The notes: generated by a model not told the origin, from the sequence alone. Counted from the first letter of the stretch, positions 19,570 through 58,693 are shown. The stretch is DNA of 64,000 nucleotides from Phycisphaerae bacterium (GCA_030426395.1 JAUHYE010000002.1:960-64959), one strand, 5' to 3'. Translations and numbers: made by a program.

Positions 19570-19577
19570 CGCAAAAG

Positions 19578-19650
<73 letters not shown>

Positions 19651-20195: not shown

Positions 20196-20211
20196 GGACA
20201 GGATCTCCAAT

Positions 20212-20814: not shown

Positions 20815-20837
20815 GCGGTGTTCCTTCTTTCGCCCGG

Positions 20838-21626: not shown

Positions 21627-21651
21627 GGCCCAGTGTATGGGCGCGCCGTGC

Positions 21652-23133
21652 TCAGTCTTCCGGGCCGTCGAGCCCCAGGGCCTTCATCTTCTTGTAGAGC
21701 GTGGTGCGGTTGATGTCCAGGTCGTCGGCGGTGGCCTGCCGATTCCAGTCGTTGGCCTGGAGGGCCCTCAGAATAATCCGCTTCTCCGGCTCCCGCAGCG
21801 CATCGGCCAGTGGCGTGGGTATCCACGGCGATTCGACTTCCGGCTCGGGCGCGCGGTGCGACGCGGGTGTCAGCGGGCCCGTGGCGTTCTCGATGACCTG
21901 CGGCGGAAGGTCGTGCAGCGCGATGGTTGGCGTGCGCGTCAGCACGGCGGCCCGCTCGACGATGTTCTGCAACTCGCGCACGTTGCCGGGATAGCTGTAC
22001 CGCCGAAGCGCGTCCATCGCGTCATCGGCAAAGCCCAGCAACGCCTTGCCAAGCTCCTCGGCGTGCTGTTTCAGGAAGTGCTCGGCCAGCATCGGCACGT
22101 CGTTCACGCGATCGCGCAGCGGCGGGATCTCGATCTTCACGACGTTAATGCGGTAGTACAGGTCTTGCCTGAACTTGCCCTCGGCCACAAGGGCTTCGAG
22201 ATCCTGGTTACTAGCGAGCACGACGCGGGTATCGACCTCGATGGTCTCGTTGCTGCCCACGGGCTCGAAGCGACGCTCCTGCAACACGCGCAGCAACTTG
22301 AGCTGCATCGCCGGGCTCGCGCTGTTGATCTCGTCGAGGAAGAGCGTGCCGCCATCGGCCGCGAGGAATCGTCCAGCCTTGTCGGCGTGCGCGCCGGTAA
22401 AGGCCCCCTTGACGTGGCCGAAGAGCTCGCTCTCGAGCAGCGTCTCGGGGATGGATCCGCAGGAGATCTCGACGAAGGGCTCGTTGCGCCGCGGGCTGTT
22501 CTGGTGAATGGCGCGGGCGATGAGGCTCTTGCCCACGCCGCTCTCGCCGCTCATGAGCACGGTCGTCCTGCTGGGCGCGACAGCTTCGATCAGCTCGAAG
22601 ATGCGTTGCACGCGGTGATCGCGACCGACGATGCCTTCCAACCCATACCGGCCGGCGAGCTGCTGCTTGAGGCGGCGGTTCTCGCTGAGCAGCTTGTGCT
22701 GGCCGAGCGCGCGTTCGAGCGACACACGCAACTCGCTGTCGACCACCGGCTTGGTGAGGTAATCGCTCGCGCCCAGGCGCAGGGCCTCGACGGCCGACTC
22801 GATCGTGCCGTAGCCCGTCAGCATGATGACCGCGGCATCGTGCTCCTTCTGGATGTGCGCAAGCAGGTCCATGCCGCCCATGCCGGGCATCGAGACGTCG
22901 CAGATCGCAAGGTCGTACGGGTGCGGCACACGGCTGGGGCCGTCGGTGTGCTGCTCGGCCTCTGCCAGGGCCTCCATGGCCTCGGCGGCGTCGAAGGCGG
23001 TGGCGGCCTCGTAGCCCTCGCGCACCAGGAACTCGGCCAAGCTCTCGGCGATGATGGGGTCGTCGTCGATCACCAGCACCTTGTGCGTGGCGGTCTGCTT
23101 GCTCTGGGGCGGGCTCTTCGCTTCGGTGGCCAT
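21652..23133 (-). CDS. sigma-54-dependent response regulator (NtrC family)
   Basis: Receiver domain VLVIDDDPIIAESL...DVSMPGMGG. AAA+ domain GESGVGKSLIARAIH and GAFTGA loop (KGAFTGAHADKAGRF). C-terminal Fis-type HTH INRTTLYKKMKALGL. Confidence 0.92.
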   Translation of the reverse strand: MATEAKSPPQSKQTATHKVLVIDDDPIIAESLAEFLVREGYEAATAFDAAEAMEALAEAEQHTDGPSRVPHPYDLAICDVSMPGMGGMDLLAHIQKEHDAAVIMLTGYGTIESAVEALRLGASDYLTKPVVDSELRVSLERALGQHKLLSENRRLKQQLAGRYGLEGIVGRDHRVQRIFELIEAVAPSRTTVLMSGESGVGKSLIARAIHQNSPRRNEPFVEISCGSIPETLLESELFGHVKGAFTGAHADKAGRFLAADGGTLFLDEINSASPAMQLKLLRVLQERRFEPVGSNETIEVDTRVVLASNQDLEALVAEGKFRQDLYYRINVVKIEIPPLRDRVNDVPMLAEHFLKQHAEELGKALLGFADDAMDALRRYSYPGNVRELQNIVERAAVLTRTPTIALHDLPPQVIENATGPLTPASHRAPEPEVESPWIPTPLADALREPEKRIILRALQANDWNRQATADDLDINRTTLYKKMKALGLDGPED

Positions 23134-29337: not shown

Positions 29338-29578
29338 GGCGGGCTCCTCCCGATAGATGAGCCAGCCCACGCCCCACCGAACGCCGGCGAACCGCGGGCC
29401 GACGACTCTTAAAACGTGAAATAATCGCCGAACTCACGCGGGAGCCGAACAAAACTCGGGGACGCTCGCGTTGTGGCGTCTTGCTCGGCGTGGGGACGAT
29501 ACCAATCCCTGCGCCCCTCCGTGCCGGCGGGCCGCTATCTTTCGCACGCCACCCCAACCCCATGACCCCACGGAACCC

Positions 29579-31873: not shown

Positions 31874-32358
31874 GGAAGTTGATCTTCATCGTAACCGTGC
31901 TGGCCCTGGCGGCGTGCGTGCTCGCGCAGAACCGCGTCGACATCGGCCCGGTCGAGATCTACAACCCCGGCGCGCCCACCGACGACGCGGCACTCGCCGA
32001 GCCGCAAGCCGAACCTCACTGGGCCGACACGCTCACGCCGGCGATCAAGCTCGGGCTGACCATGGTCGCCATCGGCGTTCCGATGCTGGTGATCGTGCTG
32101 GGCCGCGTGTGGCGGCGGCTGCCCGAGGGCGAGCGGGCGTTCATCCTGCTCAGTGTGGCGATGGGCCGCGGCCGGGGCTTCCGGGCCCGCCTGCGATCGC
32201 TGGCCGCCGCGCACGACGGCGACCAGCGCCCGATCTCGCCCATCGCGCTGCTGCTGGCCCCCCGCGCCTTCGACGCGGCCCTGGACCGCGCCACCCACGC
32301 CGAACGCGCCTTCGGCGTGCCGCAGCGCCACGCGGTGCACGGGTTCCGGAAGGGCTGA
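31870..32358 (+). CDS. hypothetical membrane protein, translationally coupled to the HEAT-repeat gene
   Basis: GTG 31870 overlaps the stop of the upstream gene (GTGA). Signal/TM VRKLIFIVTVLALAACVLAQ and a second TM LGLTMVAIGVPMLVIVLG. Confidence 0.55.
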   Translation: MRKLIFIVTVLALAACVLAQNRVDIGPVEIYNPGAPTDDAALAEPQAEPHWADTLTPAIKLGLTMVAIGVPMLVIVLGRVWRRLPEGERAFILLSVAMGRGRGFRARLRSLAAAHDGDQRPISPIALLLAPRAFDAALDRATHAERAFGVPQRHAVHGFRKG

Positions 32359-43003: not shown

Positions 43004-44161
43004 TCAGTTGGCCCGGAGGGCCTCGACGGTTTTCAACCGGGCGACCCGCAGCACGGGCAGAGCCGCCCCCAACACTCCAATCACAACCGCCAGCCCCACT
43101 CCGATCCCCAGCGTCGTCGCATCCACCATGAACCGGAACGCGCCCATCGGGATCTTCATGGGAAGCCCGTTGAGTACGCTTCCGGCGAGCGTCCCGACGG
43201 TGCCGCCAGCGACACAGAGAAACACCGACTCCAGGATGAACGACAAGAGCACGGCTTTGCGCTTGTAGCCCAGGACTAGGAGCACACCCATCTCCCTCGT
43301 CCGGCCAAGGATCGAGGTAAACATGGTGTTCATGCCCGCCATGACTGCGCCGAAGACAAGCATCGCGGTCATGACGACACTCACCGCCTGCACCGGCCGA
43401 AGACTGCTGGCGATCGCGGCGTAGTACTCCTGCTCCGTCTTCGCTTCCACCCGGATGTCTGTCCGCGTGGTGAGGTCAAACAGCAGGTCTTCTTGCGCCT
43501 GGGCTCCCTTCGTCGTCAGCAAGACGGCGGAGTAGTCCGTCCGCTTGCTGGCCGTCAGGATGTCATCAAGGTCCGCCCAGATCTCCGATTCGAGAGTCGT
43601 TCCGGGTGCTTCGAAGACCCCGGTGACGGTCCATCGCTGACCCTCGAACTCGATGGTTCTGCCGACCGCGAGTGAGGCCTGCGGCACGCCGAGTTTCACC
43701 GCCGCGAGCCTGCCGACCGCCACGCCGAAGCCGCGGGCGGGCGGCGAGCCCTCGACGATCTTGGCTTGTGGGTGAACCTGCAACCCGACGGACCACATGC
43801 CACGGATCACTCCGCGTTTGGTCCCATCGACGTCTCCGTCGGGGAAGGTCACGAACGTGCTGAGGTAGGCCTCGGGCGACGCCAGTGGCCGGCCGGAAGC
43901 TTGAGCGATGAACTCGGAACTGGTGAGCCGATGAAAGTCGGAGGGGTCGATGGCCGAGAACTCCATCGACTCGGCGCCTTTGCTCAGGACGATCACCGTA
44001 TCGGGAGAGGCGGTATTGAGGGCGCTGGAGAGCAACCCCCGCGACAGCGCGATCATGAGCACCGAGACGAAGATGGCGACCGCGACACCACCCGCAGTCA
44101 GGAGGCTCCGAGTCTTCCGCTGCATGATGGACCGGAGGTTGTATCGTAATGGCAGCTTCAT
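43004..44161 (-). CDS. ABC transporter permease, FtsX/MacB-type
   Basis: N-terminal LRSIMQRKTRSLLTAGGVAVAIFVSVLMIAL, a large periplasmic loop, and a C-terminal FtsX 3-TM bundle. The start abuts the upstream stop. Confidence 0.85.
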   Translation of the reverse strand: MKLPLRYNLRSIMQRKTRSLLTAGGVAVAIFVSVLMIALSRGLLSSALNTASPDTVIVLSKGAESMEFSAIDPSDFHRLTSSEFIAQASGRPLASPEAYLSTFVTFPDGDVDGTKRGVIRGMWSVGLQVHPQAKIVEGSPPARGFGVAVGRLAAVKLGVPQASLAVGRTIEFEGQRWTVTGVFEAPGTTLESEIWADLDDILTASKRTDYSAVLLTTKGAQAQEDLLFDLTTRTDIRVEAKTEQEYYAAIASSLRPVQAVSVVMTAMLVFGAVMAGMNTMFTSILGRTREMGVLLVLGYKRKAVLLSFILESVFLCVAGGTVGTLAGSVLNGLPMKIPMGAFRFMVDATTLGIGVGLAVVIGVLGAALPVLRVARLKTVEALRAN

Positions 44162-45307
44162 TCAGTCGACCTCCCGAAGCGCCGCGACAATGGGCAATTG
44201 TGCACCGCGTCGCGCGGGAAGATATGCTCCGAATAGCCCCATGAATGCCCCGACGAGCAGGCTCAGAGAGAGCATCGCCGCCGACATGTGCGGGGAGATG
44301 GTGTAGCCCTCGACGCTGATAGAGAGTGCGCCGGAGTTCATGACCAGGGCGGCAACGCCAGAGCCCAGCAGCGACGCCAACACCGCCAGCACGACCGCCT
44401 CAAAGATGATCATGCCCGCGACCTGGGACCGCCTGTACCCCAAGGTCTTGAGGATCGCCATCTCGCGCAGGCGGTCGCGCACGCTCATCGAGACACTGTT
44501 GGCTACGGACACCAGGAGCAGAATCAGGGCGAGATAGGCTACGACCTGCGCGAACCGAACCATTGCGCTGAAATCGGCGATGGCGTTAGCGATGAACGAC
44601 CGCTCCGGGCCGGTCTTGGTCTGTGTCTGGGCATTCGCGAATGTCGCGTCGATCGTCTCGCTGACCGAATCGACGTGCAATGGGTCGTCCAGAAGCACCA
44701 GGAACATAGTCACAATCCCCACCTGCTCGATGGACAACTCCAGGTACTCTCGGTCCACCAAGATCACCGATTCCAGCGCCGACCCAGGAGCTCGGAAGAC
44801 CCCGCGGATCACGAAGGAGATCCCGCGCAGCTCCTTGAGCGTGACTTGATCGCCTACACGCCACCCGTACTTCTCGGCCATTGAGCGTCCGACAATGGCC
44901 GAGCCTCTCTCGTCCTGGAACGCTTCGTACTCCGCATCGGGGAGATCAAGAACCCTGAAGTCGCGGAGCTTCTGCGTGTCGATCCCGTGGACGGCGACCA
45001 GGTCTGTCGTTGTCTGGCAGTTGGAGAGCATAAACCGCACAGGCATGACTTCACGCACGCCTGGAATCGACGCGATCGAGTCCGCGTAGTGCACAGGCAT
45101 CCTTGAATATGGCGGGCAGGCCTTGAACCGCTCGAACACGGTGAGCACCAAGTCTGAGCCCGTCGTCTCTACCATCCGCCGCACGCCGCGATCCAGCGAG
45201 AGAAGCGACGAGAAGACGAAGATTGACACCGCCACGCCCATGAGCGTGAGCATGGTCCGAGCCGGCTGGCGCAGGATTCCTCGGATGGTCACGTGGAGGA
45301 GCTTCAT
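44162..45307 (-). CDS. ABC transporter permease, FtsX/MacB-type (second, divergent copy)
   Basis: IRGILRQPARTMLTLMGVAVSIFVFSSL. Same topology as above. ATGA overlap with the ATPase gene. Confidence 0.85.
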   Translation of the reverse strand: MKLLHVTIRGILRQPARTMLTLMGVAVSIFVFSSLLSLDRGVRRMVETTGSDLVLTVFERFKACPPYSRMPVHYADSIASIPGVREVMPVRFMLSNCQTTTDLVAVHGIDTQKLRDFRVLDLPDAEYEAFQDERGSAIVGRSMAEKYGWRVGDQVTLKELRGISFVIRGVFRAPGSALESVILVDREYLELSIEQVGIVTMFLVLLDDPLHVDSVSETIDATFANAQTQTKTGPERSFIANAIADFSAMVRFAQVVAYLALILLLVSVANSVSMSVRDRLREMAILKTLGYRRSQVAGMIIFEAVVLAVLASLLGSGVAALVMNSGALSISVEGYTISPHMSAAMLSLSLLVGAFMGLFGAYLPARRGAQLPIVAALREVD

Positions 45308-46035
45308 GCGGGCACCTCATCAGCAATGGCAATCTGGTGATCAACAAGGAGTCCCTTGTGCATCCGCATCGTCCGAGTCGCGCGGCCGGCCACGGCCGGG
45401 TCGTGCGTCACGAGCACCACGGTCTTGCCGAAGCGAAGGTTCAGGCTGACGAGGAGGTCCATGACACCCGCGGCCGATTCGCGGTCGAGGTTACCGGTCG
45501 GCTCGTCCGCCAGGATGATCGCAGGATCAGTCGCAACAGCCCGGGCGATCGCCACCCGCTGTTCCTGGCCGCCACTGAGTTGACGCGGGTAATGGTCGGC
45601 ACGATCGGCAAGTTCTACAAGCTCGAGCGCCGTGAGCACCAGCGTCCGCCGCTTCTTCTTCGAGATCGGGAGCAGCAGGAGCGGCAACTCGATGTTCTCG
45701 TAGGCCGTGAGGACGGGCATCAGATTGAACTGTTGGAAGATGTAGCCGACGGTCCGCGTCCGCCAGTCTGCGAGGCGATCCTCGTTCCAGTCGGTGATGT
45801 CCTCGCCGTTCACGACGATGTGCCCGGCGGTCGGCTTGTCGATCCCGGCTATCAAGTTGAGCAGGGTGGACTTGCCGCTCCCGGACGGCCCCATGAGCGC
45901 GAAGAACTCGCCGCGCGGCACGTCCAGGTCCACGCCCTCCAGCGGGGTCACCTCAACGTCGCCCTTGTGGAACGTCTTTCTGACGCCGCGGACCGCGATA
46001 ATCATGCCGCCATTCGGAGTAGCTTCAGTCATCAT
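45304..46035 (-). CDS. ABC transporter ATP-binding protein (MacB/LolD-like)
   Basis: Walker A GPSGSGKSTLLNLIAG. Signature LSGGQEQRVAIARA. Walker B ILADEPTGNLD. ATG-ATG at 46035/46032. Confidence 0.9.
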   Translation of the reverse strand: MMTEATPNGGMIIAVRGVRKTFHKGDVEVTPLEGVDLDVPRGEFFALMGPSGSGKSTLLNLIAGIDKPTAGHIVVNGEDITDWNEDRLADWRTRTVGYIFQQFNLMPVLTAYENIELPLLLLPISKKKRRTLVLTALELVELADRADHYPRQLSGGQEQRVAIARAVATDPAIILADEPTGNLDRESAAGVMDLLVSLNLRFGKTVVLVTHDPAVAGRATRTMRMHKGLLVDHQIAIADEVPA

Positions 46036-47365
46036 GTCCTTCCCTATTGGCTTGCACCCGGTCGCCATCACGCACATCAGTTGCATCCTTCACGACTCGC
46101 TCCTCGGGCGACAGACCCGAGGCCACGGCCACCCTGTTGCCGGCCCTTGCCCCGAGCACAACTCTGCGGAATGTCGCTCGTCCCCCCGCCACGACATAGA
46201 CACCGGCCTCGCTGCCCTCACCTACAACAGCGGATGTGGGAACGAACATCCCGGCCGGAGTCGACGCTTCCTCGCGATCCTGTGTCGGCATGAATGTCAC
46301 CTTCACGCTCATGTCGGGTTTGGCGTCAGGCGACGGGTCGACAATCTCGATGTTCACACGGACTGTGTTCTTCTGAAGGTTCGCCATGGGCAGCACTCGG
46401 GATACCCGCCCGGCGATGGGGCTGTCAGGCTGAGCGTCGGTGATCAGAACCGCTTCCTGACCAACAGACACCTTGCCCATGTCGCGCTGGTTCACGTCTA
46501 CCCAAGCCTGAAGGTGACGCGGGTCGGCGATCGTCATGAGCGTAGCGGCACGCCGTTGGTCTCCACGAGGTGAGACCCAGTCGCCAATATGCACGACCCG
46601 CTCCATCACAACACCAGCCACCGGCGCCAGGATGACACAGCGATCGAGTCTCCACCGGGCGCGGTCGAGTTCGGCCTGCGCGGCAGCCAGATCAGAACGC
46701 GCGATCACGATGTCCTCCTGGCGATACCCCTGCTCGCGAATGGACAACTCGGCCTCTCGCACGGCAAGTTCGGCCTCCGCGGCGGCCAAATCGGCTCGTG
46801 AGGCATCGGCACCTCTTTGGGCGATAGCGCCTGTCTCCGCCAGCTTCTGATTCATTTCGTCCTCACGGCGCGCTTGCACCAACCGCGCCGCTGCACGGTT
46901 TCGGTTGGCCCTGGCCTGCTCGATCTCTTCGTGGCGGTAGCCTGCTTCGAGCCTGGCGATCCTCGCCCGCGCGATCGACACCGCCGCTTCGCGCACCTCG
47001 ACCTCTTGGCGGTAGGCCATGTCATCCAGCCGCGCCAGTTCCTGGCCTGCTTCGACGGTCTGCCCCTCGATCACTGCAAGCGACCCAACTCTGCCTTCAA
47101 TAAGTGTCGAAACAGTCCGCGGACCGGGGGGGACGATCTCCAGGTAACCTCCAGCGCTGAATCCCGTAGCCGCTACGCTATTCGACGAAGACACTGCGAC
47201 CACTTCCACGGGCTTGGCCGCGGTTGCCCCGTCTCGCACACGAAGCACCCACCAGCCGACCACCGTCGAGGTCAGAACCAGCACGACGACCACGCGCCAG
47301 ATTCTCGGCCGCTTTGCTCGCGCAGGCGGTGGTGAATCAATACGGAGATCCTCAATCGAGCCCAT
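46025..47365 (-). CDS. HlyD-family periplasmic adaptor (membrane fusion protein)
   Basis: N-terminal TM WRVVVVLVLTSTVVGWWVL. Long coiled-coil hairpin (AELAVREAELSIREQGY...). Beta-barrel C-terminus. ATG 47365 overlaps the tolC stop. Confidence 0.85.
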   Translation of the reverse strand: MGSIEDLRIDSPPPARAKRPRIWRVVVVLVLTSTVVGWWVLRVRDGATAAKPVEVVAVSSSNSVAATGFSAGGYLEIVPPGPRTVSTLIEGRVGSLAVIEGQTVEAGQELARLDDMAYRQEVEVREAAVSIARARIARLEAGYRHEEIEQARANRNRAAARLVQARREDEMNQKLAETGAIAQRGADASRADLAAAEAELAVREAELSIREQGYRQEDIVIARSDLAAAQAELDRARWRLDRCVILAPVAGVVMERVVHIGDWVSPRGDQRRAATLMTIADPRHLQAWVDVNQRDMGKVSVGQEAVLITDAQPDSPIAGRVSRVLPMANLQKNTVRVNIEIVDPSPDAKPDMSVKVTFMPTQDREEASTPAGMFVPTSAVVGEGSEAGVYVVAGGRATFRRVVLGARAGNRVAVASGLSPEERVVKDATDVRDGDRVQANREGHDD

Positions 47366-48680
47366 GGTCTGGTGCCCCCTTCGATCCTTCGCCATCTGCG
47401 CGATCACCCATTGCAGCCGCCAGCGCGATCTCGGCCTTCCGGTGCTCTAGCATCGCCCGCTCCAGTCGCACTTCCAGGTCCAAGACCCTCACATGCGCAG
47501 CGGAAACATCCAGCACACTCGCCCCTCCTTCCTGAAGCGCTCCTTCCATAATCTCAAGAGATCTTTGTGCGGCCTTTAAGAGCTCTGGAATCCCCTTCTT
47601 GGCCCGCTCGGTCAGTCGTGAAAGTTCCATTGCCGCCAAGTGGATGTCGAGGATCACACCCGCCTCGGCGGCGATCAGATCCTCCTGCAGCGACTCCAAG
47701 CTCGCACGCTCGCTCTTGCGGAGCGCCTGGCCATAGTCGAAGACCGGGATCGTAATGGCGACTTGTGCACCGGCGACGACATCCTCATCGCGACCAGGCC
47801 GGCCGATCGAAAGACCCCCTTGCACGCCGGGGACCCACGCGACCTCGGCGTACCGCATCAGGGCCTGATGCTCGGCCGCGCGTGCCAGCACAATGGCGAT
47901 CTCGGGACGACGAGCCAATGCCAGGCTCGTCGCCGTGCCGCCTTGGGTCGCCGGCATGGTAAGCAGATCTTCGCCAGATTCATCGAGTGTGATGGGCGCC
48001 GTGAGCCGTCGCCCCAGGGCTCGGTTAAAGCGAGCTTCGATGGTTGCCAATCGTGCGACTGACTCCTGTTGGTCAAGCCCAGTCTCACGTTCGGAGGCAA
48101 TCGCGCGCGCTAGATCCAGTTCCGAAGCAGCGCCAGCCTCCCGCCGTTGCCGGACCAACTCCGCGGCGATGCCTAATGCCTCCCGCTTTCGAGAAAGCAG
48201 TTCGCCAATGCGGCGCTCGGCCGTAATCTCTGCAAATAGGATCCTGACTTCTTGAACGATCTCAATCTCGCGTCGAGCGACCTCGACTGCTGCTTGCTCC
48301 TCGCGGGAGTGCGCGGCGTCCACGAGTTGTTGCCTTGCGCCGCCGGCATCGGCCAGCGATACGAGGGCGACGGATAGCCTTGCGACCCACTGCGTCGGAT
48401 CTGCCGAGACCGTCAGGGATGGATTGAGCGGGAGGGAGGTCTGTACCTTTCGCCAGTACGCCTCCGACACGCGCCAGCGGCTTGCGCGCAACACCGGGTC
48501 GTTGCGGAGCGCGATCTGGACCGCTCGCGCAGCAGTGAATGGCAACGACATGTCGTCCTCGGTGATACGGTTCGCCACATAGGTGCTCGGCGAAGCCGCC
48601 GGGACCGAGACGCAGCCGGGCACCGCGACCGACGCGATCCCACATGCCAGCACCGGAATAGCACTTGGAGGGGATTTCAT
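47352..48680 (-). CDS. TolC-family outer-membrane efflux protein
   Basis: Lipoprotein-like leader IPVLACGIASVAVPGC. Duplicated helical-repeat architecture of about 440 aa. ATGA overlap with arsR. Confidence 0.8.
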   Translation of the reverse strand: MKSPPSAIPVLACGIASVAVPGCVSVPAASPSTYVANRITEDDMSLPFTAARAVQIALRNDPVLRASRWRVSEAYWRKVQTSLPLNPSLTVSADPTQWVARLSVALVSLADAGGARQQLVDAAHSREEQAAVEVARREIEIVQEVRILFAEITAERRIGELLSRKREALGIAAELVRQRREAGAASELDLARAIASERETGLDQQESVARLATIEARFNRALGRRLTAPITLDESGEDLLTMPATQGGTATSLALARRPEIAIVLARAAEHQALMRYAEVAWVPGVQGGLSIGRPGRDEDVVAGAQVAITIPVFDYGQALRKSERASLESLQEDLIAAEAGVILDIHLAAMELSRLTERAKKGIPELLKAAQRSLEIMEGALQEGGASVLDVSAAHVRVLDLEVRLERAMLEHRKAEIALAAAMGDRADGEGSKGAPDHGLD

Positions 48681-49060
48681 CGAGGCGCATGCTCCCGGGC
48701 CTGCGCGTCCTCCAAAAGGCACTGCCCGCGATCCAGCAGGCTTGCAACGCAGGGGTCAACAAGGCGGTAGTACACGTTGTTTCCGTCCCGCCGCCCCTCC
48801 AGGATGCCCCGGTCGACGAGCCGTCGGAGTTGGTTCGACACCGCCTGCGGCTTCATGGCAACCGCATCGGCCAGCTCGATGACGCACAGTTCGCCGGCCC
48901 TCACGATCGCGTGCATGAGCCGAAGACGCGTGCCGTTGGCGAGTACCTTGAACAGTTCCTCGAGCCCGTCCGCTTGAGCGGTGCTGATCAGCGGCCGATC
49001 CGCGAGATCAGGCTTGGGCGGGCAGGGTCTGAGATCACTATTGGTTGTTCGGGTCGGCAT
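48677..49060 (-). CDS. ArsR/SmtB-family metalloregulatory transcriptional repressor
   Basis: Winged HTH LFKVLANGTRLRLMHAIVRAGELCVIELADAVAMKPQAVSNQLRRLVDRGIL. GGAG precedes ATG 49060. Confidence 0.85.
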   Translation of the reverse strand: MPTRTTNSDLRPCPPKPDLADRPLISTAQADGLEELFKVLANGTRLRLMHAIVRAGELCVIELADAVAMKPQAVSNQLRRLVDRGILEGRRDGNNVYYRLVDPCVASLLDRGQCLLEDAQAREHAPR

Positions 49061-49088
49061 GGCATGCTCCAAGCCAGGAAAAGTCACG

Positions 49089-49103
49089 ACTACACGATGT
49101 AGT
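49089..49103. promoter_or_regulatory. 6-3-6 palindrome ACTACA-CGA-TGTAGT, candidate ArsR operator
   Basis: Read directly, about 30 nt upstream of the arsR start in an AT-richer tract. Its function is inferred. Confidence 0.3.
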
Positions 49104-49510
49104 GTAGTGTTCGTCTGAACCATGGTCAAGGTTCGGCCGAATCGCCATCTCGTAGAATCGAACTTCCGGCAGCGCGGTTTGGGAAGTGACGGCCGTTGGG
49201 TTCTCGGAACAAGCCGGGCGTGTAACGTCTCGTCTGTAATTCTCTCCGAGGCGGGTCGGCGGCGGGTTTCGCCGGCGACCCTCTCGGCTGGCAGTCTGAA
49301 AGCGACGGGCCGGCCCCCGATGATAACTTTGTGTTTGGGTTATTGGAGAGTTCACGCGTACGCCGCCGGTTTGCTACCTGCGCCAACTCAAGGTGCTGGC
49401 AATGTCATGCCTGGCAACAGTTTGGCGGGCTAAAGCTCGTCCATTCGCTCATTTGGCACCCCAAATTTGCTCTTTTTATGCATACATCAGGCTATTTTAT
49501 GCCGACAGTC

Positions 49511-49539
49511 TTGACATTACCCTTTTGGAGCCGTATTTT
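49511..49539 (+). promoter_or_regulatory. sigma-70-like promoter TTGACA-17 nt-TATTTT abutting the AAA ATPase start
   Basis: TTGACA 49511-49516 and TATTTT 49534-49539 read directly. The ATG at 49540 and GTG at 49546 follow immediately, so the mRNA may be leaderless. Confidence 0.3.
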
Positions 49540-50745
49540 ATGCCCGTGAGTGCCAGTTCTACCCCAAGCAGTGTTCGGCAGTACGTCTTCGATATCGGCA
49601 AGATCGTGGAGGGGGCCCTGCGCGGGGATCAGGCGCGAGTTTTGACCTATACCGACCGCCTCCGAAGCAGGCTTGAGGAGGACGGAGAACAGCAGGCCGC
49701 CCTTAGGCTGAAACGCTTGCTCAGCGGCTCGCCTAGCCACATGGCTCAGGTCGCCGACATCGCGGAAGCCCGCCGCGGGCTCCCCGTCGATAGTGAGTCT
49801 CGGCTCCCGATCGCCGACATTGACCCCGCCCCCACCGGCACAGAGACGCTCGTGCTTGAGCAGGATGTCGGGGCACTGGTCGAGCGATTCGTCGCGTCCG
49901 TCCAGATGGCCGACGAGCTGGTGGCGAACGGACTGAGCGTCTCGCCCTCGATGCTCATCCACGGTCCGCCCGGCGTGGGCAAGACGCTGTTGGCTCGCTC
50001 CATCGCGCAGCGACTCGGCTTTCCGCTCATCACCGCCCGCACAGACGCGCTCATCTCCTCATACCTCGGCAGCACCGCCAAGAATGTGCGCATGCTCTTC
50101 GACCACGCGGCGGGCCGCCCCTGCGTGCTCTTCCTCGACGAGTTCGACGCACTCGGCAAGATGCGGGATGACTCGCGTGAGCTAGGCGAGCTCAAACGCG
50201 TGGTCATCAGCCTTCTCCAGAACATTGATGCGCTCGGTCCCGATCATGTGCTGCTGGCTGCTACGAACCACGAGCACCTGCTCGACCCCGCAATCTGGAG
50301 GCGTTTCACATACAAGATTCGCCTCGGCCCTCCTTCGGTCGAGGCTCGTGGGGAGCTATTCCGCCGCTTCCTCCGCGGCCATCTGGAGGACCAAGACATT
50401 GAGGTCCTGACGATGCTTGCCGAGGGCGCAACCGGTGCGGAAATCAAGCACGCGTGTGAAGACAGCCTCCGCGCGATGGTGCTCGGGGGTCGTACGGAGC
50501 TAGGTCTTGAAGTCGTGGCGCACACCCTGATGCATTCACTCGATGACGACACGGAAGGCGCTGCTCCAGAGGATGTAGTCCTCAGGCTCGCCGAGCGTCT
50601 GGGGCGCAAGGCGTCACAAGAGAAAATTGGTCGGATCGTCGGGCTGTCACAGTCCCAGGTATCTCGCATCCTGAACGCGAAGGAGGATCGGCATGGCCGA
50701 CGAACCACTGCTTCCAATCAAAGTCGTCCTCAGAAGCGACGGTGA
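49540..50745 (+). CDS. classical AAA+ ATPase with C-terminal HTH (IetA-like candidate)
   Basis: Walker A HGPPGVGKTLLARS. Walker B CVLFLDEFDAL. Sensor-1 LLAATNH. Arg finger region DPAIWRRF. C-terminal GLSQSQVSRILN. Start is 49540 or 49546; the AT-rich ORF part from 49393 is judged non-coding. Confidence 0.85.
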   Translation: MPVSASSTPSSVRQYVFDIGKIVEGALRGDQARVLTYTDRLRSRLEEDGEQQAALRLKRLLSGSPSHMAQVADIAEARRGLPVDSESRLPIADIDPAPTGTETLVLEQDVGALVERFVASVQMADELVANGLSVSPSMLIHGPPGVGKTLLARSIAQRLGFPLITARTDALISSYLGSTAKNVRMLFDHAAGRPCVLFLDEFDALGKMRDDSRELGELKRVVISLLQNIDALGPDHVLLAATNHEHLLDPAIWRRFTYKIRLGPPSVEARGELFRRFLRGHLEDQDIEVLTMLAEGATGAEIKHACEDSLRAMVLGGRTELGLEVVAHTLMHSLDDDTEGAAPEDVVLRLAERLGRKASQEKIGRIVGLSQSQVSRILNAKEDRHGRRTTASNQSRPQKRR

Positions 50746-52963
50746 CGATCAGAGCAAGCCGCCGTCGCCGCGTGAGTACAAGCCATTCGTCGACGTAACG
50801 GACAAGCTGCGCGACCGTCTCATCGGCGAGGTCGCCGCAGTGCGGGATGCATTCGCGCCGTCATTTCGTCGGTTCCCGGGCGTGCCAGCGGTCGCGAAAG
50901 TCACGCTGCGACAAGAGGCTCTCGCCAAATCGCACCGCCCGACCTCGCTATTCAATCCCGATACCTGCCCGGTCATTGGCGCGGATCATCTTGGCACGCT
51001 CCGCGTGAGTGTGACGCCAGCCGGACTCGACGGGCTCTCGCGTGCGATCCGGACGGGCACGAAAGATGAGTCGCTCGCGCACATCTCTGCGGTTGGCACG
51101 ATCCTGCCTTGGACAGTAGAGGACACGGTGCGGCTCCCGGATAACAAGGCCCCGGACACGCCGGTGCGGTGCGAGCTGTTCTTCCGGCCCGATGTCGAGA
51201 CGAACACGGCAGTGCACCACGCTTTCGAAACGATGCTAGAGGACCTGGAACTCGACGCGCCCGAGCCAATCCGGTACACACCGCGGACCCGAGTGTACCG
51301 TTTCGGGTCGCTGGGCCGAGCAGAGGCAATGCAGCTTGGAAACTACGTTGGCATCCAGCGCATCGAGCCATTTGCGGAGTACCGAGTGGTGCGCACGGCC
51401 GCGCGGGTGATCGACTCAATGTCGCCCGACACGCTTCCGCCCCCGGAAGCGGGGCGGCTCACCGGCTTGGTCGGCATCATCGACACCGGCACCGATCCCG
51501 GCAACGCGCAGCTCCAGGCGTGGGTCGCGGACCGGCTCGACATGGTCGATCCGAGCGAGCAGGACAACACGCACGGGAGCTTTGTAGCCGCGCTAATCGC
51601 ACATGGGCGTACTCTCAACGGCGGGCGCACCGGTTTCCCTGATGTTTCGAGCAGGATCGTGGACGTTGTTGCGTTCGACCGATCAGGACGCGTCAGCGAG
51701 GATGAGCTGCTTCTGACGATTGACGAGGCGTTACAACGATTCCCGAACGTCAAGGTCTGGAATCTCTCACTTAATCGGGATGGTGAGTGCTGCGCGGACG
51801 ATTGTTTTTCGAGCTTTGCCACCGCGCTCGACCACCGGGCGCAGCAGCACGGGGTGCTGTTCGTGGTCGCTGCGGGCAATTACACCAGGACGTTCCGGCC
51901 CTGGCCCCCATCCCCGCAACTCGACGATGATCGGGTCTCGCCCCCGGGCGATGCGGCGCACGCGCTGACCGTTGGGTCGGTGGCACACTTGGCGACCGAG
52001 AGCTCGGTCGTCCGCGCCGACGAGCCCTCTCCCTTCTCCCGCCGCGGTCCCGGCGCGGCCTACCTGCTCAAGCCCGAGCTGAGCCAGCCGGGCGGCAACT
52101 GTGATGCCGATGGCCGCTATGTCCAAACCGGTATTGTGTCGGTCGATGGTTCGGGCAACATCGCCGAGGATATCGGTGTCAGCTATGCGACACCGCTGAT
52201 CTCAACGCTCGCGGGATACACGTTCGAGGAGCTCGCGGCCGATTCCGGCGGAGTCTCTCCGCATCTCGTCAAGGCGCTTCTCATCCACTCAGCGTTCATG
52301 CGTTCGCACCCTCTGGAGCGGCCGCTGGTGGATTACGCCGGGTGCGGCTCTCCCGGAATGGCAGGCGAGGTGCTCCGGTGCCGCCAATCGTCCGCGACGA
52401 TGGTATTTCAGATCGCGCTCCGCTCGCGCGTGTTCCTGCGGCACCCGTTCCCGATGCCCGATTGCCTGCTCACGAAGGCTGGAAAGCTCAGCGCCGAGGT
52501 CTTCATGACACTCGTGCACGATACGCCCATCAACGAGAACTACGGGCCCGAGTACTGCCGCTCGCACGTCACGGCGTCGCTGGGGATCGCAACCCCCAGC
52601 ACGAGCAAGTCCCGCAAAGGTGCCTGGAACGTGGAGCGGCAGGTCCACCCCGTTCTCGGCGGCCTGGAAGAGGGATACGAGGCGGATCTGGTCGAGCACG
52701 GGTTCAAGTGGTCGCCGGTCAAGCTGTACCACCGGAAGTTCTCGCGCGGCCCTGGCGATGCCCACTGGGGTCTGCGGCTCCAGCGTTTCGACCGCCAGGA
52801 GTACGGCAACCCGCAACGCGAGCAGCAGGTGTCCGTCGTCGTTTCCGTGCGCGACCCAAAGGGAGCCGCGCCGGTATACAACGAGCTCGTCACCTCAATC
52901 AACACCCTTGGCTGGACAACCCACGACCTCCAGCTCCGGTCACGTCCGCGTCTTCAGAACTGA
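50693..52963 (+). CDS. cytoplasmic S8 (subtilisin-like) serine peptidase with unknown N- and C-terminal domains (IetS-like candidate)
   Basis: AAGGAGGA lies 6 nt before ATG 50693. The gene overlaps the AAA gene by 53 nt. Catalytic residues in context: Asp VGIIDTGTD, His NTHGSFVAALIAHG, Asn VVAAGN, Ser GVSYATPLIS. No signal peptide. Confidence 0.9.
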   Translation: MADEPLLPIKVVLRSDGDDQSKPPSPREYKPFVDVTDKLRDRLIGEVAAVRDAFAPSFRRFPGVPAVAKVTLRQEALAKSHRPTSLFNPDTCPVIGADHLGTLRVSVTPAGLDGLSRAIRTGTKDESLAHISAVGTILPWTVEDTVRLPDNKAPDTPVRCELFFRPDVETNTAVHHAFETMLEDLELDAPEPIRYTPRTRVYRFGSLGRAEAMQLGNYVGIQRIEPFAEYRVVRTAARVIDSMSPDTLPPPEAGRLTGLVGIIDTGTDPGNAQLQAWVADRLDMVDPSEQDNTHGSFVAALIAHGRTLNGGRTGFPDVSSRIVDVVAFDRSGRVSEDELLLTIDEALQRFPNVKVWNLSLNRDGECCADDCFSSFATALDHRAQQHGVLFVVAAGNYTRTFRPWPPSPQLDDDRVSPPGDAAHALTVGSVAHLATESSVVRADEPSPFSRRGPGAAYLLKPELSQPGGNCDADGRYVQTGIVSVDGSGNIAEDIGVSYATPLISTLAGYTFEELAADSGGVSPHLVKALLIHSAFMRSHPLERPLVDYAGCGSPGMAGEVLRCRQSSATMVFQIALRSRVFLRHPFPMPDCLLTKAGKLSAEVFMTLVHDTPINENYGPEYCRSHVTASLGIATPSTSKSRKGAWNVERQVHPVLGGLEEGYEADLVEHGFKWSPVKLYHRKFSRGPGDAHWGLRLQRFDRQEYGNPQREQQVSVVVSVRDPKGAAPVYNELVTSINTLGWTTHDLQLRSRPRLQN

Positions 52964-52987
52964 AACCACGAACTTAGGAGATTCAGC

Positions 52988-53179
52988 ATGGCAAACAACA
53001 AGCCACTCAAACCTGGGAACAGCGCCCCCCGCTCGGGGCAGTACCGCGAGGTCGGACCTCGCGGCGGTCAAAGGCGGGAGATCACAGCAACCAAGGGCGA
53101 GACGCTGCCGCCGACGACGACGCCGGGCTCGTCATACAAGCTGGTCGATCCGACCAAGAACAAATCCGGCCGAGGTTGA
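52988..53179 (+). CDS. small YjzC-like protein
   Basis: AGGAGA RBS. Pattern KPGNSAPRSGQYREVGPRGG...KGETLPPT resembles my recollection of the YjzC family. Confidence 0.65.
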   Translation: MANNKPLKPGNSAPRSGQYREVGPRGGQRREITATKGETLPPTTTPGSSYKLVDPTKNKSGRG

Positions 53180-53244
53180 GGCCGCCTGGATTTTGACGGA
53201 TCGGACACGGAGAGCCACGGAATCGCCGCCCCGGACGGCGCTCC

Positions 53245-54069
53245 TCACGCCGCATGCTCACGGCCTTCGGCGTGTGTCATCGCCGTGATGATCTCGGCTG
53301 CAACACGCTGGATGCGATCGAGGGAGCTTGCGAGCGTCTCGGCCTTGCCGTCGTAGAGCTGTATGTAGTCACTCGCGGCCGAGCCAGTCTCCAGTCCGAT
53401 GGCCTGACAGATGACGAAAGCGACGGCTTCGGCTTCGGTCTCCCGCACGGTCTTGCTGGCGGGTCGCTGGTCGCCACGATGCAGCAGCTCGTGTGCGAGT
53501 TCATGGACGATGACTGAGAACTCGTTGGCTGGTTCAAGGTCAGCTCGGATGCTGATTCGTCCCCCGCGTGAGACACCGTCGGCTCCGGGCGGCACGTCGT
53601 CGTAATCGAGCGTGATGCCGCGTTCCGCGATCTGCTCTTTGATTCTGTTGAGGTGATGCTGAGGATCTCCGCTGACTCGCGATGGCTCGGGGAGTGGCTC
53701 ACCGTCGGTCTGGGATACGTCGAAGACGTACACGCCGCGGAATCGGAGGATGGGCTTGTCTTGGTCGGACTGCTCCTCGCCTTCGGACTTGTCGTTCTTC
53801 GGGCGGATGCTCATCGGGGCGATGATCACAATCCCCTTCTCGCCCTTCTTGACGAAGCGGCCCATCTGTTTCCAGGTACTGAACCCTGCGACGTGCGTCG
53901 CGTTGGGATTCTGCGATAGAATGAGTAGAACGTTCCCGAAGCTATACCGATGGAACTTGGCGAGCATTGCGAGGTACTGCGTGATTCGCTCACTCTTTCC
54001 GTTCTTGAGCGCGTCGGTGAGATTCTGGAGTGCCTGGTCGGCGATCTTCTTTGCTTCTTCGGCTTTCAT
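53245..54069 (-). CDS. ardC: ArdC-family antirestriction protein (ssDNA-binding N-domain + zincin metalloprotease domain)
   Basis: N-domain FHRYSFGNVLLILSQNPNATHVAGFSTWKQMGRFVKKGEKGI. HExxH VIVHELAHELLH. AAAGGAG RBS. Confidence 0.85.
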   Translation of the reverse strand: MKAEEAKKIADQALQNLTDALKNGKSERITQYLAMLAKFHRYSFGNVLLILSQNPNATHVAGFSTWKQMGRFVKKGEKGIVIIAPMSIRPKNDKSEGEEQSDQDKPILRFRGVYVFDVSQTDGEPLPEPSRVSGDPQHHLNRIKEQIAERGITLDYDDVPPGADGVSRGGRISIRADLEPANEFSVIVHELAHELLHRGDQRPASKTVRETEAEAVAFVICQAIGLETGSAASDYIQLYDGKAETLASSLDRIQRVAAEIITAMTHAEGREHAA

Positions 54070-54966
54070 GTCTTTGCTCCTTTGCGGGTCCCGCGACGTG
54101 CGGCCCCTTCACAAGGAACGGGGCCACTCGCGGGTGCAATGGAGCGAGCGGAGCGAAGCCGGCAGTAGGTTGAAGGGTCCTGCGAAGCAGGCACAAACGA
54201 ATGACAGATCGAACCCGCGCCCTCAAGGTGCGGGCGTCCCCGGCGCTGGACGGGGCGGGTCTGGCGTGAGGTGTGCGAGGCCCGGAGACCGGAAGCGCCC
54301 CCTGGCGCGGTGACGGCGGGAGCGGAGCGTTAGAAAGCCGAGAGTGCGTTGTGAGCCGACCGGACGATTCAGATACCGACGCAGTGACTCGAAAGGTGAG
54401 CTGTCACTTCTCGTGATGCCCACCATGTGACACTCGTTGACTCGTCACTCATCTCTCGCGGTGCCCGAGGGTGTTCTCCTGGAAACAGAAGAAGCTGTCA
54501 TGTGAGCGAAACAGGATCGAGGCCCGCTCCACCCGAAGGTCTTGTCCGAGGGCCAGTCCATATCGAGGCAGGCTTTTCACAGCGGCCTGGTCTCTCCGGA
54601 CAGGCCGACGAGTGCTCCCAGAGTTAGTGGAGTATCCGAGGTTCAACTCATGCAGAGTGTGGTCGCGGTCAACTCTCGACAGACGACTGCTGACCTCTGA
54701 AGGCGTCGATGCGGAGATGATCGATGCGACTTGCTCAACCGGTCATTCGGCCCGAGTCCTCGTCCTGAATGCCCACGCTACGCGTGGCACCTGCCCCACC
54801 TCGATCGAAGACCTGTGCGGTTGACCTGTGGAGTCGCCCCTTGTCAGACAGGTAATCGGATGAGCAGCACGATGCAGCTCACACACCGGTCTAGATGAAG
54901 ATTTCATCCACCGAATATCGCCGAACAACAACAGGCAGAAGATCTAGGTATAGGACTCTCGGTTTT

Positions 54967-55090
54967 ACGGGGGGGTGATTCAGCGCATCAACGGCGTCAT
55001 ACGGAGGGCGATTCAGCGCACGCAGGGAGGGCGATTCATCGTGGATAAGTCACTGGATTCACAGGGTTGTTCACAGGCATTTCGATTCAG
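54967..55090. promoter_or_regulatory. candidate oriV: iteron-like direct repeats plus a DnaA-box-like site next to repA
   Basis: ACGG(G/A)GGG(T/C)GATTCAGCGCA at 54967-54987 and 55001-55020. A third copy GGGAGGGCGATTCATCG at 55025-55041. Weaker GATTCA cores at 55056 and 55084. GTGGATAAG at 55041-55049 matches the TGTGGATAA DnaA box in 8 of 9 positions. Confidence 0.5.
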
Positions 55091-56049
55091 TCGGTACTAC
55101 CGCTCTCGATGAGGATCTGGGTGCGGCGCACAGGGGCGTGCGATGGCTTGAGCAATAATCCGCCTGGCACATCGCGGAGGTTCGCGTCTGGATATACGAG
55201 GCAGACCTGCTTCAGCGCGTGCCGGAAAGACTTCTTGAAGTCCTTAGACCGCCCGTAGTCTTGCCCGAACTGATCCTTCAGATTGCCCCAGCTCACCTTC
55301 GTACCCCGGTGGTCCCGGACCCGCTGCAAACGGTGCGCGAGCCATGTGTAGATGTCGAGTGCAAGCGCAGAGTGCTTCAGGGCCGCGAGCGCGCGGTAGT
55401 CGAGCGGCACGGCGTGCCGTGTGAGAGTGTCGAAGAAGTCCTCCGACAGCTCGAGCTCTCCCGGCCACAGCGTCCGCTGCGACCCATCATGGAGCCCGTT
55501 GAGTATCCAGGCATCGAAGCGTTTGATCGGCTTGGCATCGATCGTGGACACACGATCGCCATTGGTCATGCCTAGCGTCATGTGGCATGCCGCAAGGGCC
55601 TGGAGTTGCCTTCGCAGGGCGGTGTACCCACCCCTCGGTCCTCCCGAGACCTGCAGGCCGAGCTGCAGCAGGTACTGCCGCATGCTCTCTCCGATGTCGA
55701 TGACACGCGACCGCGTCCTGACCGCTTCGGTGCTGACATGCACCATGACGAGACGGGGAATCGCTCCATAGGGAAGTGGCTGCTCGGTCCACGACAAACC
55801 GTTCCACAGCTTGCCAGCCTCGACCAGTAGACTCAGGTTTCCGTTGGTGCGCTCGAACGAGCGCAGCGGAGTGGATTTGCGTGGCATTCCGACCTGGCAC
55901 AGCACACTGTGCGAAAACTGCAGCCGATCGGGCTGCTCCAGTTTGATCTGATCGCTCGCGATCAGGAGTCCCCACTGTTGCCGGGTCAGACCAGACGACG
56001 GCGGAGGTCCGTCGAAGTCTGTCACAGGAAGCCGTGCTTCTTCAGCCAC
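55087..56049 (-). CDS. repA: plasmid/ICE replication initiator RepA-like protein
   Basis: FSHSVLCQVGMPRKS...LLVEAGKLWNG...PLPYGAIPRLVMVHV...ALDIYTWLAHRL...SWGNLKDQFGQDY matches my recollection of the plasmid-encoded RepA family. GTG start overlaps the RHH gene. Confidence 0.8.
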   Translation of the reverse strand: MAEEARLPVTDFDGPPPSSGLTRQQWGLLIASDQIKLEQPDRLQFSHSVLCQVGMPRKSTPLRSFERTNGNLSLLVEAGKLWNGLSWTEQPLPYGAIPRLVMVHVSTEAVRTRSRVIDIGESMRQYLLQLGLQVSGGPRGGYTALRRQLQALAACHMTLGMTNGDRVSTIDAKPIKRFDAWILNGLHDGSQRTLWPGELELSEDFFDTLTRHAVPLDYRALAALKHSALALDIYTWLAHRLQRVRDHRGTKVSWGNLKDQFGQDYGRSKDFKKSFRHALKQVCLVYPDANLRDVPGGLLLKPSHAPVRRTQILIESGSTD

Positions 56050-57513: not shown

Positions 57514-57920
57514 CGGCGGGCTCCATACAGCTCGCGGCGGACCACTTCGAGCAGCTCAAGCCGAAGCCCCTCGACCTGGACTCGGTTCGGCCAGTCGTCA
57601 GCATTGAACTCTGAGGCGATGACCAGGTGGTCCTTCAGGTCACGGGATATCAGCACGCACCGCTCTTCTGTGCAGAAGACCTGCCAAGGGAACCGCTCTG
57701 CGTCGTGGCTGTAGATCACTTCGGTCACGCCGAGTTCCTCTGCGATCGCGGCCCGGTACCCTGCTTCGTAAGCATCGCCGAGGGCTTGCCCGACGTTCAC
57801 GACTGACAGATCGTGGAAGTCGAGTGAATAGCTCCCCCGCGATGCCAGCGTCTCGATACCCAGTCGGTCGCGGGCGATGCCCGCGACGATGTGGGTGATG
57901 GGTCTGTAGATGCTGCTCAT
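57510..57920 (-). CDS. hypothetical protein (136 aa), element-associated
   Basis: GGGAGG RBS. ATGA overlap with the methyltransferase stop. IARDRLGIETLASRGSYSLDFHDLSV resembles small proteins I recall from conjugative elements (family name uncertain). Confidence 0.6.
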   Translation of the reverse strand: MSSIYRPITHIVAGIARDRLGIETLASRGSYSLDFHDLSVVNVGQALGDAYEAGYRAAIAEELGVTEVIYSHDAERFPWQVFCTEERCVLISRDLKDHLVIASEFNADDWPNRVQVEGLRLELLEVVRRELYGARR

Positions 57921-58693
57921 TGCCGCGCCTCCCTGCGTGGTTTCTCGAAGACCACGCACACGTCGTGCAGGCCGGGGATGAACGAGCTTCGGTACACCCT
58001 GCGGCCGCTCGACGCGCCGTGGCTGAATCGAACGATGTCGGTGCAACACTGCCGCAACCCGGCATCGAATGCAAGGCGTTTCGTGTGGTAGACCAGCGGC
58101 ACGAAGCCCGCCTCGCGGTCCTGGTAGTCGCCCATCAGGATCGCCAGCCGCCCGCCCGGCTCCAGGACGCCGGCCGCAGCCTCGATGAACAGGGCGTAAC
58201 GATCCAGGAACTCCTGGAGCGTCTCAGCACGGGAGAGGTCACGATCGTCGGCCGCGTAGAGCTTCTGCCGCCAATACGGTGGATGGGCCCAGACGAAGTC
58301 AGCGAGGCCGCCGCCCGCAAGTTGCTGCATGGCTTCGGCACTGGTCGCGTCGAAACCGTCGTGGATGTCACCGCTGCGACAGTCCGAGTCCAGCTCGCGG
58401 CACACATCCTGGCAGGTCCCGCTTCCAGTCATCGGATCGAGCACGAGCCGAGGCTTGAAGTAGAGCAGCAGGTCGCGGATCAGGTTGCCGCCGCAGTTGC
58501 CCGGGTAGCTTCGCTTCCCGTACGAACCGGCGTCTGCGTGGTGGTACAGGCTGGTGAGTCGCGGCACCGGGCTGCCAGTGATTGGGGCACGCGGGAGCTT
58601 GGCGAACAGTGGCTGCAAGTGGCGTGAAGGTCCCGCTATGCGGGCCGTACACCTGTTGGCGAAGAACGGGTTGATTTGGTGTGATGTAGTCAT
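57917..58693 (-). CDS. orphan DNA methyltransferase (N6-adenine/N4-cytosine class)
   Basis: Motif I VLDPMTGSGT. Motif IV-like VWAHPPYW. No restriction endonuclease gene adjacent. Confidence 0.8.
   Translation of the reverse strand: MTTSHQINPFFANRCTARIAGPSRHLQPLFAKLPRAPITGSPVPRLTSLYHHADAGSYGKRSYPGNCGGNLIRDLLLYFKPRLVLDPMTGSGTCQDVCRELDSDCRSGDIHDGFDATSAEAMQQLAGGGLADFVWAHPPYWRQKLYAADDRDLSRAETLQEFLDRYALFIEAAAGVLEPGGRLAILMGDYQDREAGFVPLVYHTKRLAFDAGLRQCCTDIVRFSHGASSGRRVYRSSFIPGLHDVCVVFEKPRREARQ

Follow-up and report, generated by a model that had tools for sequence, protein, structure and literature searches.

We analyzed a 64,000-nucleotide (nt) stretch of DNA from a Phycisphaerae bacterium (GCA_030426395.1, JAUHYE010000002.1:960-64959; the whole stretch is called the window below). 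Two overlapping open reading frames (ORFs) on its plus strand, at 49393..50745 and 50693..52963, encode an AAA+ ATPase and a 756-amino-acid (aa) S8-family protease, and a small third gene follows them on the same strand. We consider it likely that these genes form a three-gene operon, ietA-ietS-yjzC, and that this operon is a bona fide IetAS (also IteAS) system, situated in the maintenance and transfer region of an element that is integrated in a Phycisphaerales (Planctomycetota) chromosome. A first-pass annotation of the same DNA had proposed an IetAS-type ATPase and S8 protease on a mobile element, and this identification stands, although several of its details do not.

The start of the ATPase gene is one such detail. 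The codon chosen previously, a GTG at 49393, was replaced by an ATG at 49540, which gives ietA (49540..50745, plus strand) and a protein of 401 aa. This is almost certainly the true start, because a GGAG lies 9 nt 5′ of it, the public gene call is exactly the 401-aa protein beginning there, IetA homologues align only from approximately residue 12 (family alignment, numbered from this ATG), and the DNA 5′ of 49540 has diverged in related elements while the coding part of ietA is conserved; GTG 49393 was rejected on the last three of these grounds. The junction with ietS (50693..52963, plus strand) was described correctly by the first-pass annotation. The ORF and junction check recovers AAGGAGGA at 50680-50687, the ietS ATG at 50693, and the end of the ietA stop codon at 50745, and the overlap is therefore 53 nt. 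The ribosome-binding site and ATG (50680..50695) are thus placed within the 3′ end of ietA, an arrangement consistent with translational coupling of ietS. The earlier cassette end at 53179 silently took in the third gene (52988..53179, plus strand), which encodes a 63-aa YjzC-like protein (PF14168, E = 8e-8). A gap of 24 nt separates it from ietS, it is preceded by an AGGAG of its own, and it probably belongs to the same operon. A GC-rich hairpin with T-runs on both strands (53167..53192, unstranded) lies between yjzC and the convergent ardC and is likely the operon end.

Assignment to the IetAS family

Both proteins match the IetAS models of PADLOC over their full length. The IetA model (PDLC02196) aligns residues 15 to 382 of the ATPase with profile positions 3 to 372 of 374 (E = 1.7e-122), and the IetS model (PDLC02197) aligns residues 7 to 752 of the protease with positions 6 to 747 of 749 (E = 5.5e-223), so that the search with IetA and IetS hidden Markov models suggested in the first-pass annotation came out strongly positive. 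The NCBIfam models "anti-phage ATPase IteA" (396.9 bits, cut-off 510) and "S8 family anti-phage peptidase IteS" (630.8 bits, cut-off 900) also align end to end. Because these scores fall under the NCBI equivalog cut-offs, the pair is a more distant member than those which NCBI names automatically. The nearest annotated iteS genes in a plasmid collection encode proteins that are 34 to 36% identical over 89 to 99% of the protein, and a megablast search of this collection with the cassette turned up no near-identical DNA. By profile score the pair lies well within the family and not at its edge, since the window IetS reaches 740 bits on the PADLOC IetS model, compared with 201 bits for the AAA-ATPase and S8 peptidase pair of an Agrobacterium Ri plasmid, whose protease and ATPase are 27% and 41% identical to those of the window.

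The window shares with described IetAS systems an AAA+ gene directly 5′ of, and coupled to, a gene for an S8 protease of approximately 750 aa, full-length model matches, intact catalytic residues in both enzymes, a location on a mobile element, and a common layout in which the protease has N-terminal, catalytic, and C-terminal parts and the ATPase an HTH (helix-turn-helix) tail. It differs in its planctomycete (Phycisphaerales) host, in sharing only approximately 36% identity with its nearest annotated IteS counterpart, and in the length of the gene overlap (53 nt, against a family median of 8 nt). On this evidence we regard the locus as an intact and rather typical IetAS, that is, a new locus of an already described system.

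IetA is identified by PADLOC, NCBIfam, Pfam AAA, the family alignment, and an AlphaFold (AF2) model as a classic-clade AAA+ ATPase. The Walker A and B motifs, sensor-1, Arg-finger region, and C-terminal HTH named in the first-pass annotation could all be located: Walker A is GPPGVGKT at 142-149 (K148), Walker B is VLFLDE at 196-201 (D200/E201), sensor-1 is N243, and the Arg fingers are R254/R255. There is in addition a pore loop of the aromatic-hydrophobic-Gly type (SSYLG, 173-177), and all of these elements are kept in homologues in the family alignment. The protein begins with a helical bundle (13-79) and a conserved linker (LPVDSESRLPxAD, 81-93), followed by the AAA+ module (approximately 107-333), of which Pfam recognizes only AAA at 138-262, and by the HTH domain at residues 343-386 (50566..50697, plus strand), which includes ...VGLSQSQVSRILN and carries the recognition helix SQSQVSRILN. 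The HTH assignment comes from weak matches to Sigma70_r4, HTH_31, HTH_3, and Xre-like HTH domains together with family conservation, as IetA relatives of 365 to 400 aa retain it with the consensus FTQxxLAxxFGxSQxxVSxxLK. The basic C-terminal tail beyond it is non-conserved and is the source of the 53-nt overlap with ietS. The top structural matches of the AF2 model (predicted local distance difference test [pLDDT], 86) are PAN, the proteasomal Rpt subunits, FtsH, Cdc48, and Rix7, and this predicted fold fits the classic protein-unfolding clade, in agreement with the YLG pore loop. No solved structure of IetA or IetS is present in the PDB copy searched, where the matches are generic subtilisins and AAA+ proteins.

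The protease was identified by PADLOC, NCBIfam, Pfam Peptidase_S8, and its AF2 model. Its catalytic residues, D264, H294, N396, and S497, are invariant across 57 homologues, and the catalytic domain (259-534) corresponds to Pfam Peptidase_S8, the sole Pfam match on the protein. IetS is predicted to be cytoplasmic, because it has neither a hydrophobic or transmembrane segment (maximum Kyte-Doolittle 19-residue mean, 0.92) nor a signal-like N terminus; the intact Asp/His/Asn/Ser set and the lack of a signal peptide had both been recognized in the first-pass annotation. The same annotation could not assign the two ends of the protease to any family. This is true of Pfam, which finds nothing in residues 1-258 and 535-756 at E values up to 10 (including no Inhibitor_I9 domain in residues 1-260), but the IetS family models cover both ends. 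Family profiles of residues 1-258 and 537-756 gave only chance matches (E about 1) against PDB sequences. Hundreds of full-length IetS relatives of 740 to 770 aa, 40 to 50% identical, are present in a large protein database, and the N- and C-terminal regions are conserved in their alignment, with an invariant AKSHRP...TCP motif near residues 76-93.

An AlphaFold model of IetS built from the family alignment (pLDDT, 91.2; predicted template modeling score, 0.92) suggests what these regions may be. Secondary-structure assignment with DSSP places two beta-alpha-beta-beta-alpha-beta units, at approximately 66-139 and 158-232, before the catalytic domain, similar to the units of I9 propeptides, and the model ends in a beta-rich domain at approximately 565-750. 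The best whole-chain Foldseek matches are the pro-subtilisins ProN-Tk-SP (3afg), KP-43 (1wmd), and PCSK9, which possess an N-terminal propeptide and a C-terminal beta domain, with 500 to 700 aligned columns. From the topology and these whole-chain matches, rather than from a domain-level superposition, we infer that the N-terminal region is propeptide-like and possibly inhibitory and that the C-terminal domain is a beta-sandwich. IetS differs from pro-subtilisins in having no detectable sequence similarity to them beyond the catalytic domain, in its predicted cytoplasmic location, and in its two modules and long helix; the signal peptide and the sequence-detectable Inhibitor_I9 domain of secreted subtilases were both not found on it.

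Gene order, the YjzC-like gene, and phased repeats upstream of ietA

The organization of the window was compared with that of 80 loci taken from species-representative genomes. Wherever the IetS match is full length and enough upstream DNA is available, IetA lies directly 5′ of IetS (47 of 47 loci). The end of ietA runs past the start of ietS in 28 of 39 loci, and in 10 more the two lie 2 to 6 nt apart, so that 38 of 39 pairs are tightly joined; the overlap has a median of 8 nt and reaches 149 nt. Four other loci (L027, L036, L076, and L079) have partial IetS-like matches, mostly to the catalytic and/or C-terminal part, with no IetA in the 10 kb upstream; these are orphan or decayed copies of ietS, or else belong to a related family of proteases that lacks the ATPase. 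The distribution of IetAS is patchy across phyla, on plasmids and islands. An Acidobacteriaceae IetAS locus (L071) encodes within 10 kb an ArdC homologue that is 52% identical (7428-8180) and a TrwC that is 29% identical (20001-22292), so that conjugative elements of at least two phyla carry IetAS.

A YjzC-like gene follows ietS in a minority of loci. Besides the window (52988-53179), it stands directly after ietS in Fimbriimonadaceae, Gemmatimonadota, and Thiodiazotropha (L017, 12278-12466; L031, 5490-5681; L054, 12530-12715), which makes four independent lineages, and the IetS proteins of the other three are only 30 to 39% identical to that of the window. The copies share the consensus KPGQxAPxSGQYxxxGPRGGxxxEVTxxKGxPLPPT...YxLVDxxKNKSG. 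Because unrelated lineages share this arrangement and the flanks of the 80 loci hold no further copy of the gene, the association is not due to chance. The gene is nevertheless optional. A literature search on YjzC returned nothing informative, and a recurrent YjzC-like partner of ietS seems not to have been noted previously. The protein could be a third part of IetAS that some lineages have and others do not. The family has an example of gaining a third, regulatory component in ietHAS (Liu-DS4; PMC13069673), which has the IetA/IetS core in common with the window and adds an SNF2-type helicase. No helicase adjoins the window pair, where the extra gene encodes the 63-aa protein.

Three direct repeats of TTTATGC, a putative IetA operator, lie upstream of ietA on the plus strand (49475-49481, 49496-49502, and 49537-49543) at spacings of 21 and 41 nt, the last copy overlapping the start codon. 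TTTATGC occurs 6 times in the 64-kb window against 1.05 expected, and 3 of these copies are the ones upstream of ietA. In related elements the boxes stay invariant even though the intergenic DNA around them is no longer conserved. A survey of exact 7-mer direct repeats in the region from -160 to +12 of ietA was carried out on 57 non-redundant loci from Planctomycetota, Verrucomicrobiota, Acidobacteriota, Myxococcota, Bacteroidota, Proteobacteria, and others. Spacings of 20 to 21 nt (57 cases), 40 to 42 nt (36 cases), and 61 to 63 nt (12 cases) dominate, with 0 to 4 cases at any other spacing. On-phase repeats (20 to 22, 40 to 43, and 61 to 63 nt) make up 107 of 145 upstream of ietA, compared with 2 to 10 of 24 to 45 in control regions of the same loci and with an average of 4.8 and a maximum of 10 in shuffles.

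The sequence of the repeat varies by lineage and tracks the recognition helix of the IetA HTH, with almost no cross-matches. Loci whose helix reads S[LTV]G have a GTTCA repeat (11 of 11), the Bacteroidota helix TPSSLSK goes with TGGAAA (6 of 7), SK[AT]T with TCGTYYC (5 of 8), and the helix of the window, SQSQVSRIL, with TTATGC (3 of 3). We conclude that the IetA HTH probably binds these repeats and represses its own operon, which is the best explanation because a phased 5- to 7-mer is kept in non-coding DNA across phyla and always adjoins ietA. The HTH tail had been taken for a sensor in the first-pass annotation, and the comparative evidence instead favors autoregulatory binding to an operator. 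Phased direct repeats upstream of ietA across the family appear to be a new observation.

A sigma-70-like promoter, TTGACA-17-TATTTT (49511..49539, plus strand; 10 of 12 matches), ends directly at the ietA ATG, and the GGAG Shine-Dalgarno sequence (49527-49530) sits inside its spacer, an arrangement kept in two related elements (L082 and L085). The ietA transcript could be leaderless. A GTG two codons after the ietA ATG is invariant in relatives (49511-49548).

This arrangement recalls type II toxin-antitoxin (TA) modules, with which the locus shares the antitoxin-first order, the gene overlap, an HTH in the antitoxin, and operator-like boxes over the promoter and start codon; TA antitoxins commonly repress their own operon. 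It differs from them in that the putative antitoxin, IetA, is an ATP-dependent AAA+ machine of approximately 400 aa and not a small labile protein, that the putative toxin is a 756-aa protease, and that the boxes are direct repeats at a phasing of 20 to 21 bp rather than palindromes. Bacterial enhancer-binding proteins have the same order of AAA+ module and C-terminal HTH and bind repeated upstream sites, as IetA probably does. The resemblance is an analogy only, as IetA is a member of the classic (proteasomal/FtsH/Cdc48) clade, carries a YLG pore loop, and gave no match to sigma-54 activator families in the family scans.

The carrier element and its neighborhood

Chromosomal genes (RsgA, DUF885, and others) extend to approximately 41.8 kb of the window, and the chromosomal RsgA shares 88% identity with its counterpart in a Phycisphaerales metagenome-assembled genome, so that the host is a planctomycete. 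Near 42 kb the GC content falls from 0.676 in the chromosomal part to 0.628 in the element (42 to 64 kb). At the element end near 42 kb we detected neither an integrase nor an att site; the other end lies beyond the window. A tRNA-Lys gene at 19577-19650 was rejected as integration site, because chromosomal genes run on to approximately 41.8 kb. Within the chromosomal part, the interval 28000-32000 has a GC content of 0.71 to 0.76 and long overlapping ORFs on both strands.

The position of the cassette between an efflux operon and ArdC is as the first-pass annotation gave it. To the left of ietA lies a MacB-type OEP-HlyD-ABC-FtsX-FtsX efflux operon (43004-48722, minus strand), headed by a winged HTH (wHTH) regulator (48677-49129, minus strand) that is divergent from ietA, is of the ArsR/MarR type by Pfam, and matches the Csa3 wHTH models of PADLOC. 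The 410-nt intergenic region between this regulator and ietA (49130-49539) probably holds two divergent promoters. To the right of yjzC, ArdC (ArdC_N), RepA_C, ParA, and an orphan methyltransferase are encoded on the minus strand, followed by a TrwC relaxase. The "AT-richer pocket" in which the pair was previously said to lie is confined to the 410-nt intergenic region (GC content, 0.561). The genes themselves, at 0.633 (ietA) and 0.646 (ietS), do not fall below the 0.628 of the element as a whole, and we rejected the idea that base composition marks the pair as separately acquired.

Related metagenomic elements, in which IetA is 90 to 93% identical, conserve the order ietA-ietS-yjzC-ardC-[variable slot]-repA-parA-...-trwC. 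Because this block is kept while the upstream cargo differs, the module is part of the maintenance neighborhood of this element family. The slot between ardC and repA_C is approximately 1 kb long in the window and has small ORFs only (54070-55086). In L082 (14798-15703) it holds a RES-domain toxin, and a ParD antitoxin lies just 5′ of ietA in the same element; in L085 (5169-7729) it holds a 455-aa protein, an HTH_31 protein, and a 252-aa protein. The region of this slot looks like a hotspot for addiction or defense cargo.

The orphan DNA methyltransferase (57917-58693, minus strand) matches N6_N4_Mtase weakly and PADLOC MTase_II at E = 1e-10. Its gene stands next to a DUF6900 gene, with no restriction gene beside it, and is kept in related elements. 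It probably helps the element to counter restriction or to protect itself. A PADLOC search of ten neighboring ORFs found no second defense system, the only matches being this orphan type II methyltransferase and the Csa3-like wHTH protein. An Rfam search of 48600-55200 returned nothing credible, with one snoRNA match at E = 0.16.

Proposed working and alternative explanations

According to the account in PMC13069673, IetAS came to light on pTiC58 in connection with plasmid stability and incompatibility, as a TA system whose toxin is the protease and whose antitoxin is the ATPase; it was later reported to defend against phage. Its defense activity needs the protease activity, constructs with mutated ietA were not obtainable, and the mechanism of phage defense "remains unknown" (PMC13069673). 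In Bacillus, an IetAS works through abortive infection, and expression of yosG, a gene of phage SPbeta, triggers its toxicity (bioRxiv 10.1101/2022.08.27.505566). We found no mechanistic or structural paper on IetAS in the literature as of April 2026.

By analogy with these members, IetS would be a cytoplasmic subtilisin-like protease with toxic activity. IetA, presumably a hexameric classic-clade AAA+ translocase, would be made just before IetS and, because the genes overlap, at a fixed ratio to it. It would neutralize IetS in an ATP-dependent manner, by unfolding or holding it, possibly via the propeptide-like N-terminal region, while its HTH domains would bind the direct repeats, spaced at two helical turns across the promoter and start codon, and repress the operon. 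If the element were lost, IetA would not be resupplied, and if a phage protein disturbed IetA the effect would be similar: IetS would be freed and would cleave cellular proteins, and growth would stop or the cell would die. The outcome would be stabilization of the element by post-segregational killing together with abortive infection against phage. The toxin and antitoxin roles, the protease requirement, and abortive infection with a phage-protein trigger are carried over here from the literature on other members.

Several points weigh against this interpretation. Both proteins score under the NCBI equivalog cut-offs, and equivalence to the tested systems is an extrapolation across approximately 36% identity; the evidence on this locus is comparative and model-based. 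The link between operator and HTH is a comparative one, and the helix classes are also clades, so that shared ancestry may explain part of the association between helix and repeat. A further point is that the sigma-70-like -10 element abuts the ietA ATG while the conserved GGAG sits in the promoter spacer.

The alternative that fares best is that the module serves purely for element addiction by post-segregational killing in this host, without a role in phage defense. We think this unlikely, although much of the genomic context is in keeping with it. The founding description, as reported in PMC13069673, was one of plasmid stability and incompatibility, and such a role suits the genomic position in the window at least as well as phage defense does: the cassette stands beside repA_C, parA, and ardC in a position kept in related elements, the hotspot of the relatives has other TA parts (ParD upstream of ietA and RES in the ardC-repA slot of L082), and the neighboring genes yield no other PADLOC defense system, the orphan methyltransferase match aside. 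However, IetAS homologues have been reported as anti-phage or abortive-infection systems in tests in Escherichia coli and Bacillus, addiction and abortive infection are compatible in TA modules, and the sequence favors neither of the two.

Much less probable is the reading of the first-pass annotation, a divergent IetAS-like system in which the HTH tail and the extra protease domains are lineage-specific additions for sensing or target recognition. The failure of Pfam and PDB sequence searches on the ends of IetS, even with family profiles, and the scores under the NCBIfam equivalog cut-offs would agree with it. But the main IetA and IetS models match at full length, with 740 bits against 201 for the Ri plasmid pair, the IetS models cover both ends of the protease, and these ends are conserved in at least 57 homologues of 740 to 770 aa; the HTH is kept in IetA homologues and tracks the cis repeat 5′ of its own gene, which points to autoregulation. 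Since the protease ends and the HTH tail are conserved in hundreds of homologues, the system is typical rather than divergent, and these parts belong to the whole family and not to this locus. The N- and C-terminal regions of IetS could be substrate- or IetA-recognition parts of the family at large. A housekeeping unfoldase-protease pair for protein quality control, or an exported protease with a dedicated chaperone, is scarcely credible despite the resemblance of IetA to proteasomal, FtsH, and Cdc48 ATPases and weak family-level matches to mycosin and EccA of the type VII secretion system, because the pair lies on a mobile element and not among core genes, is patchy across phyla, plasmids, and islands, has a protease with no signal peptide or transmembrane segment, and matches defense models down to 1e-223.

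An IetAS operon that may serve both addiction and defense thus remains our preferred reading. A bolder version of it, to which we give a low probability, is that IetA forms a DNA-anchored AAA+ ring whose six C-terminal HTH domains occupy the iteron-like phased repeats at its own promoter, coupling antitoxin activity, expression, and perhaps the state of the carrier DNA, with the YjzC-like protein as a modulator, decoy substrate, or trigger relay in some lineages, that of the window among them. If true, the DNA-anchored IetA ring and YjzC would be the first concrete regulatory handle on IetAS.

What the analysis yields for this locus is mainly a tidy annotation: a mobile element from the little-studied phylum Planctomycetota with a standard IetAS in its maintenance region. 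It fits the view that such modules serve the element through addiction and the host through abortive infection alike. Neither the operator-like repeats nor the YjzC partner alters the kind of system that this is, and both are modest and testable observations. The family-wide, operator-like repeats that track the IetA HTH offer a cheap and testable entry into the mechanism of IetAS.

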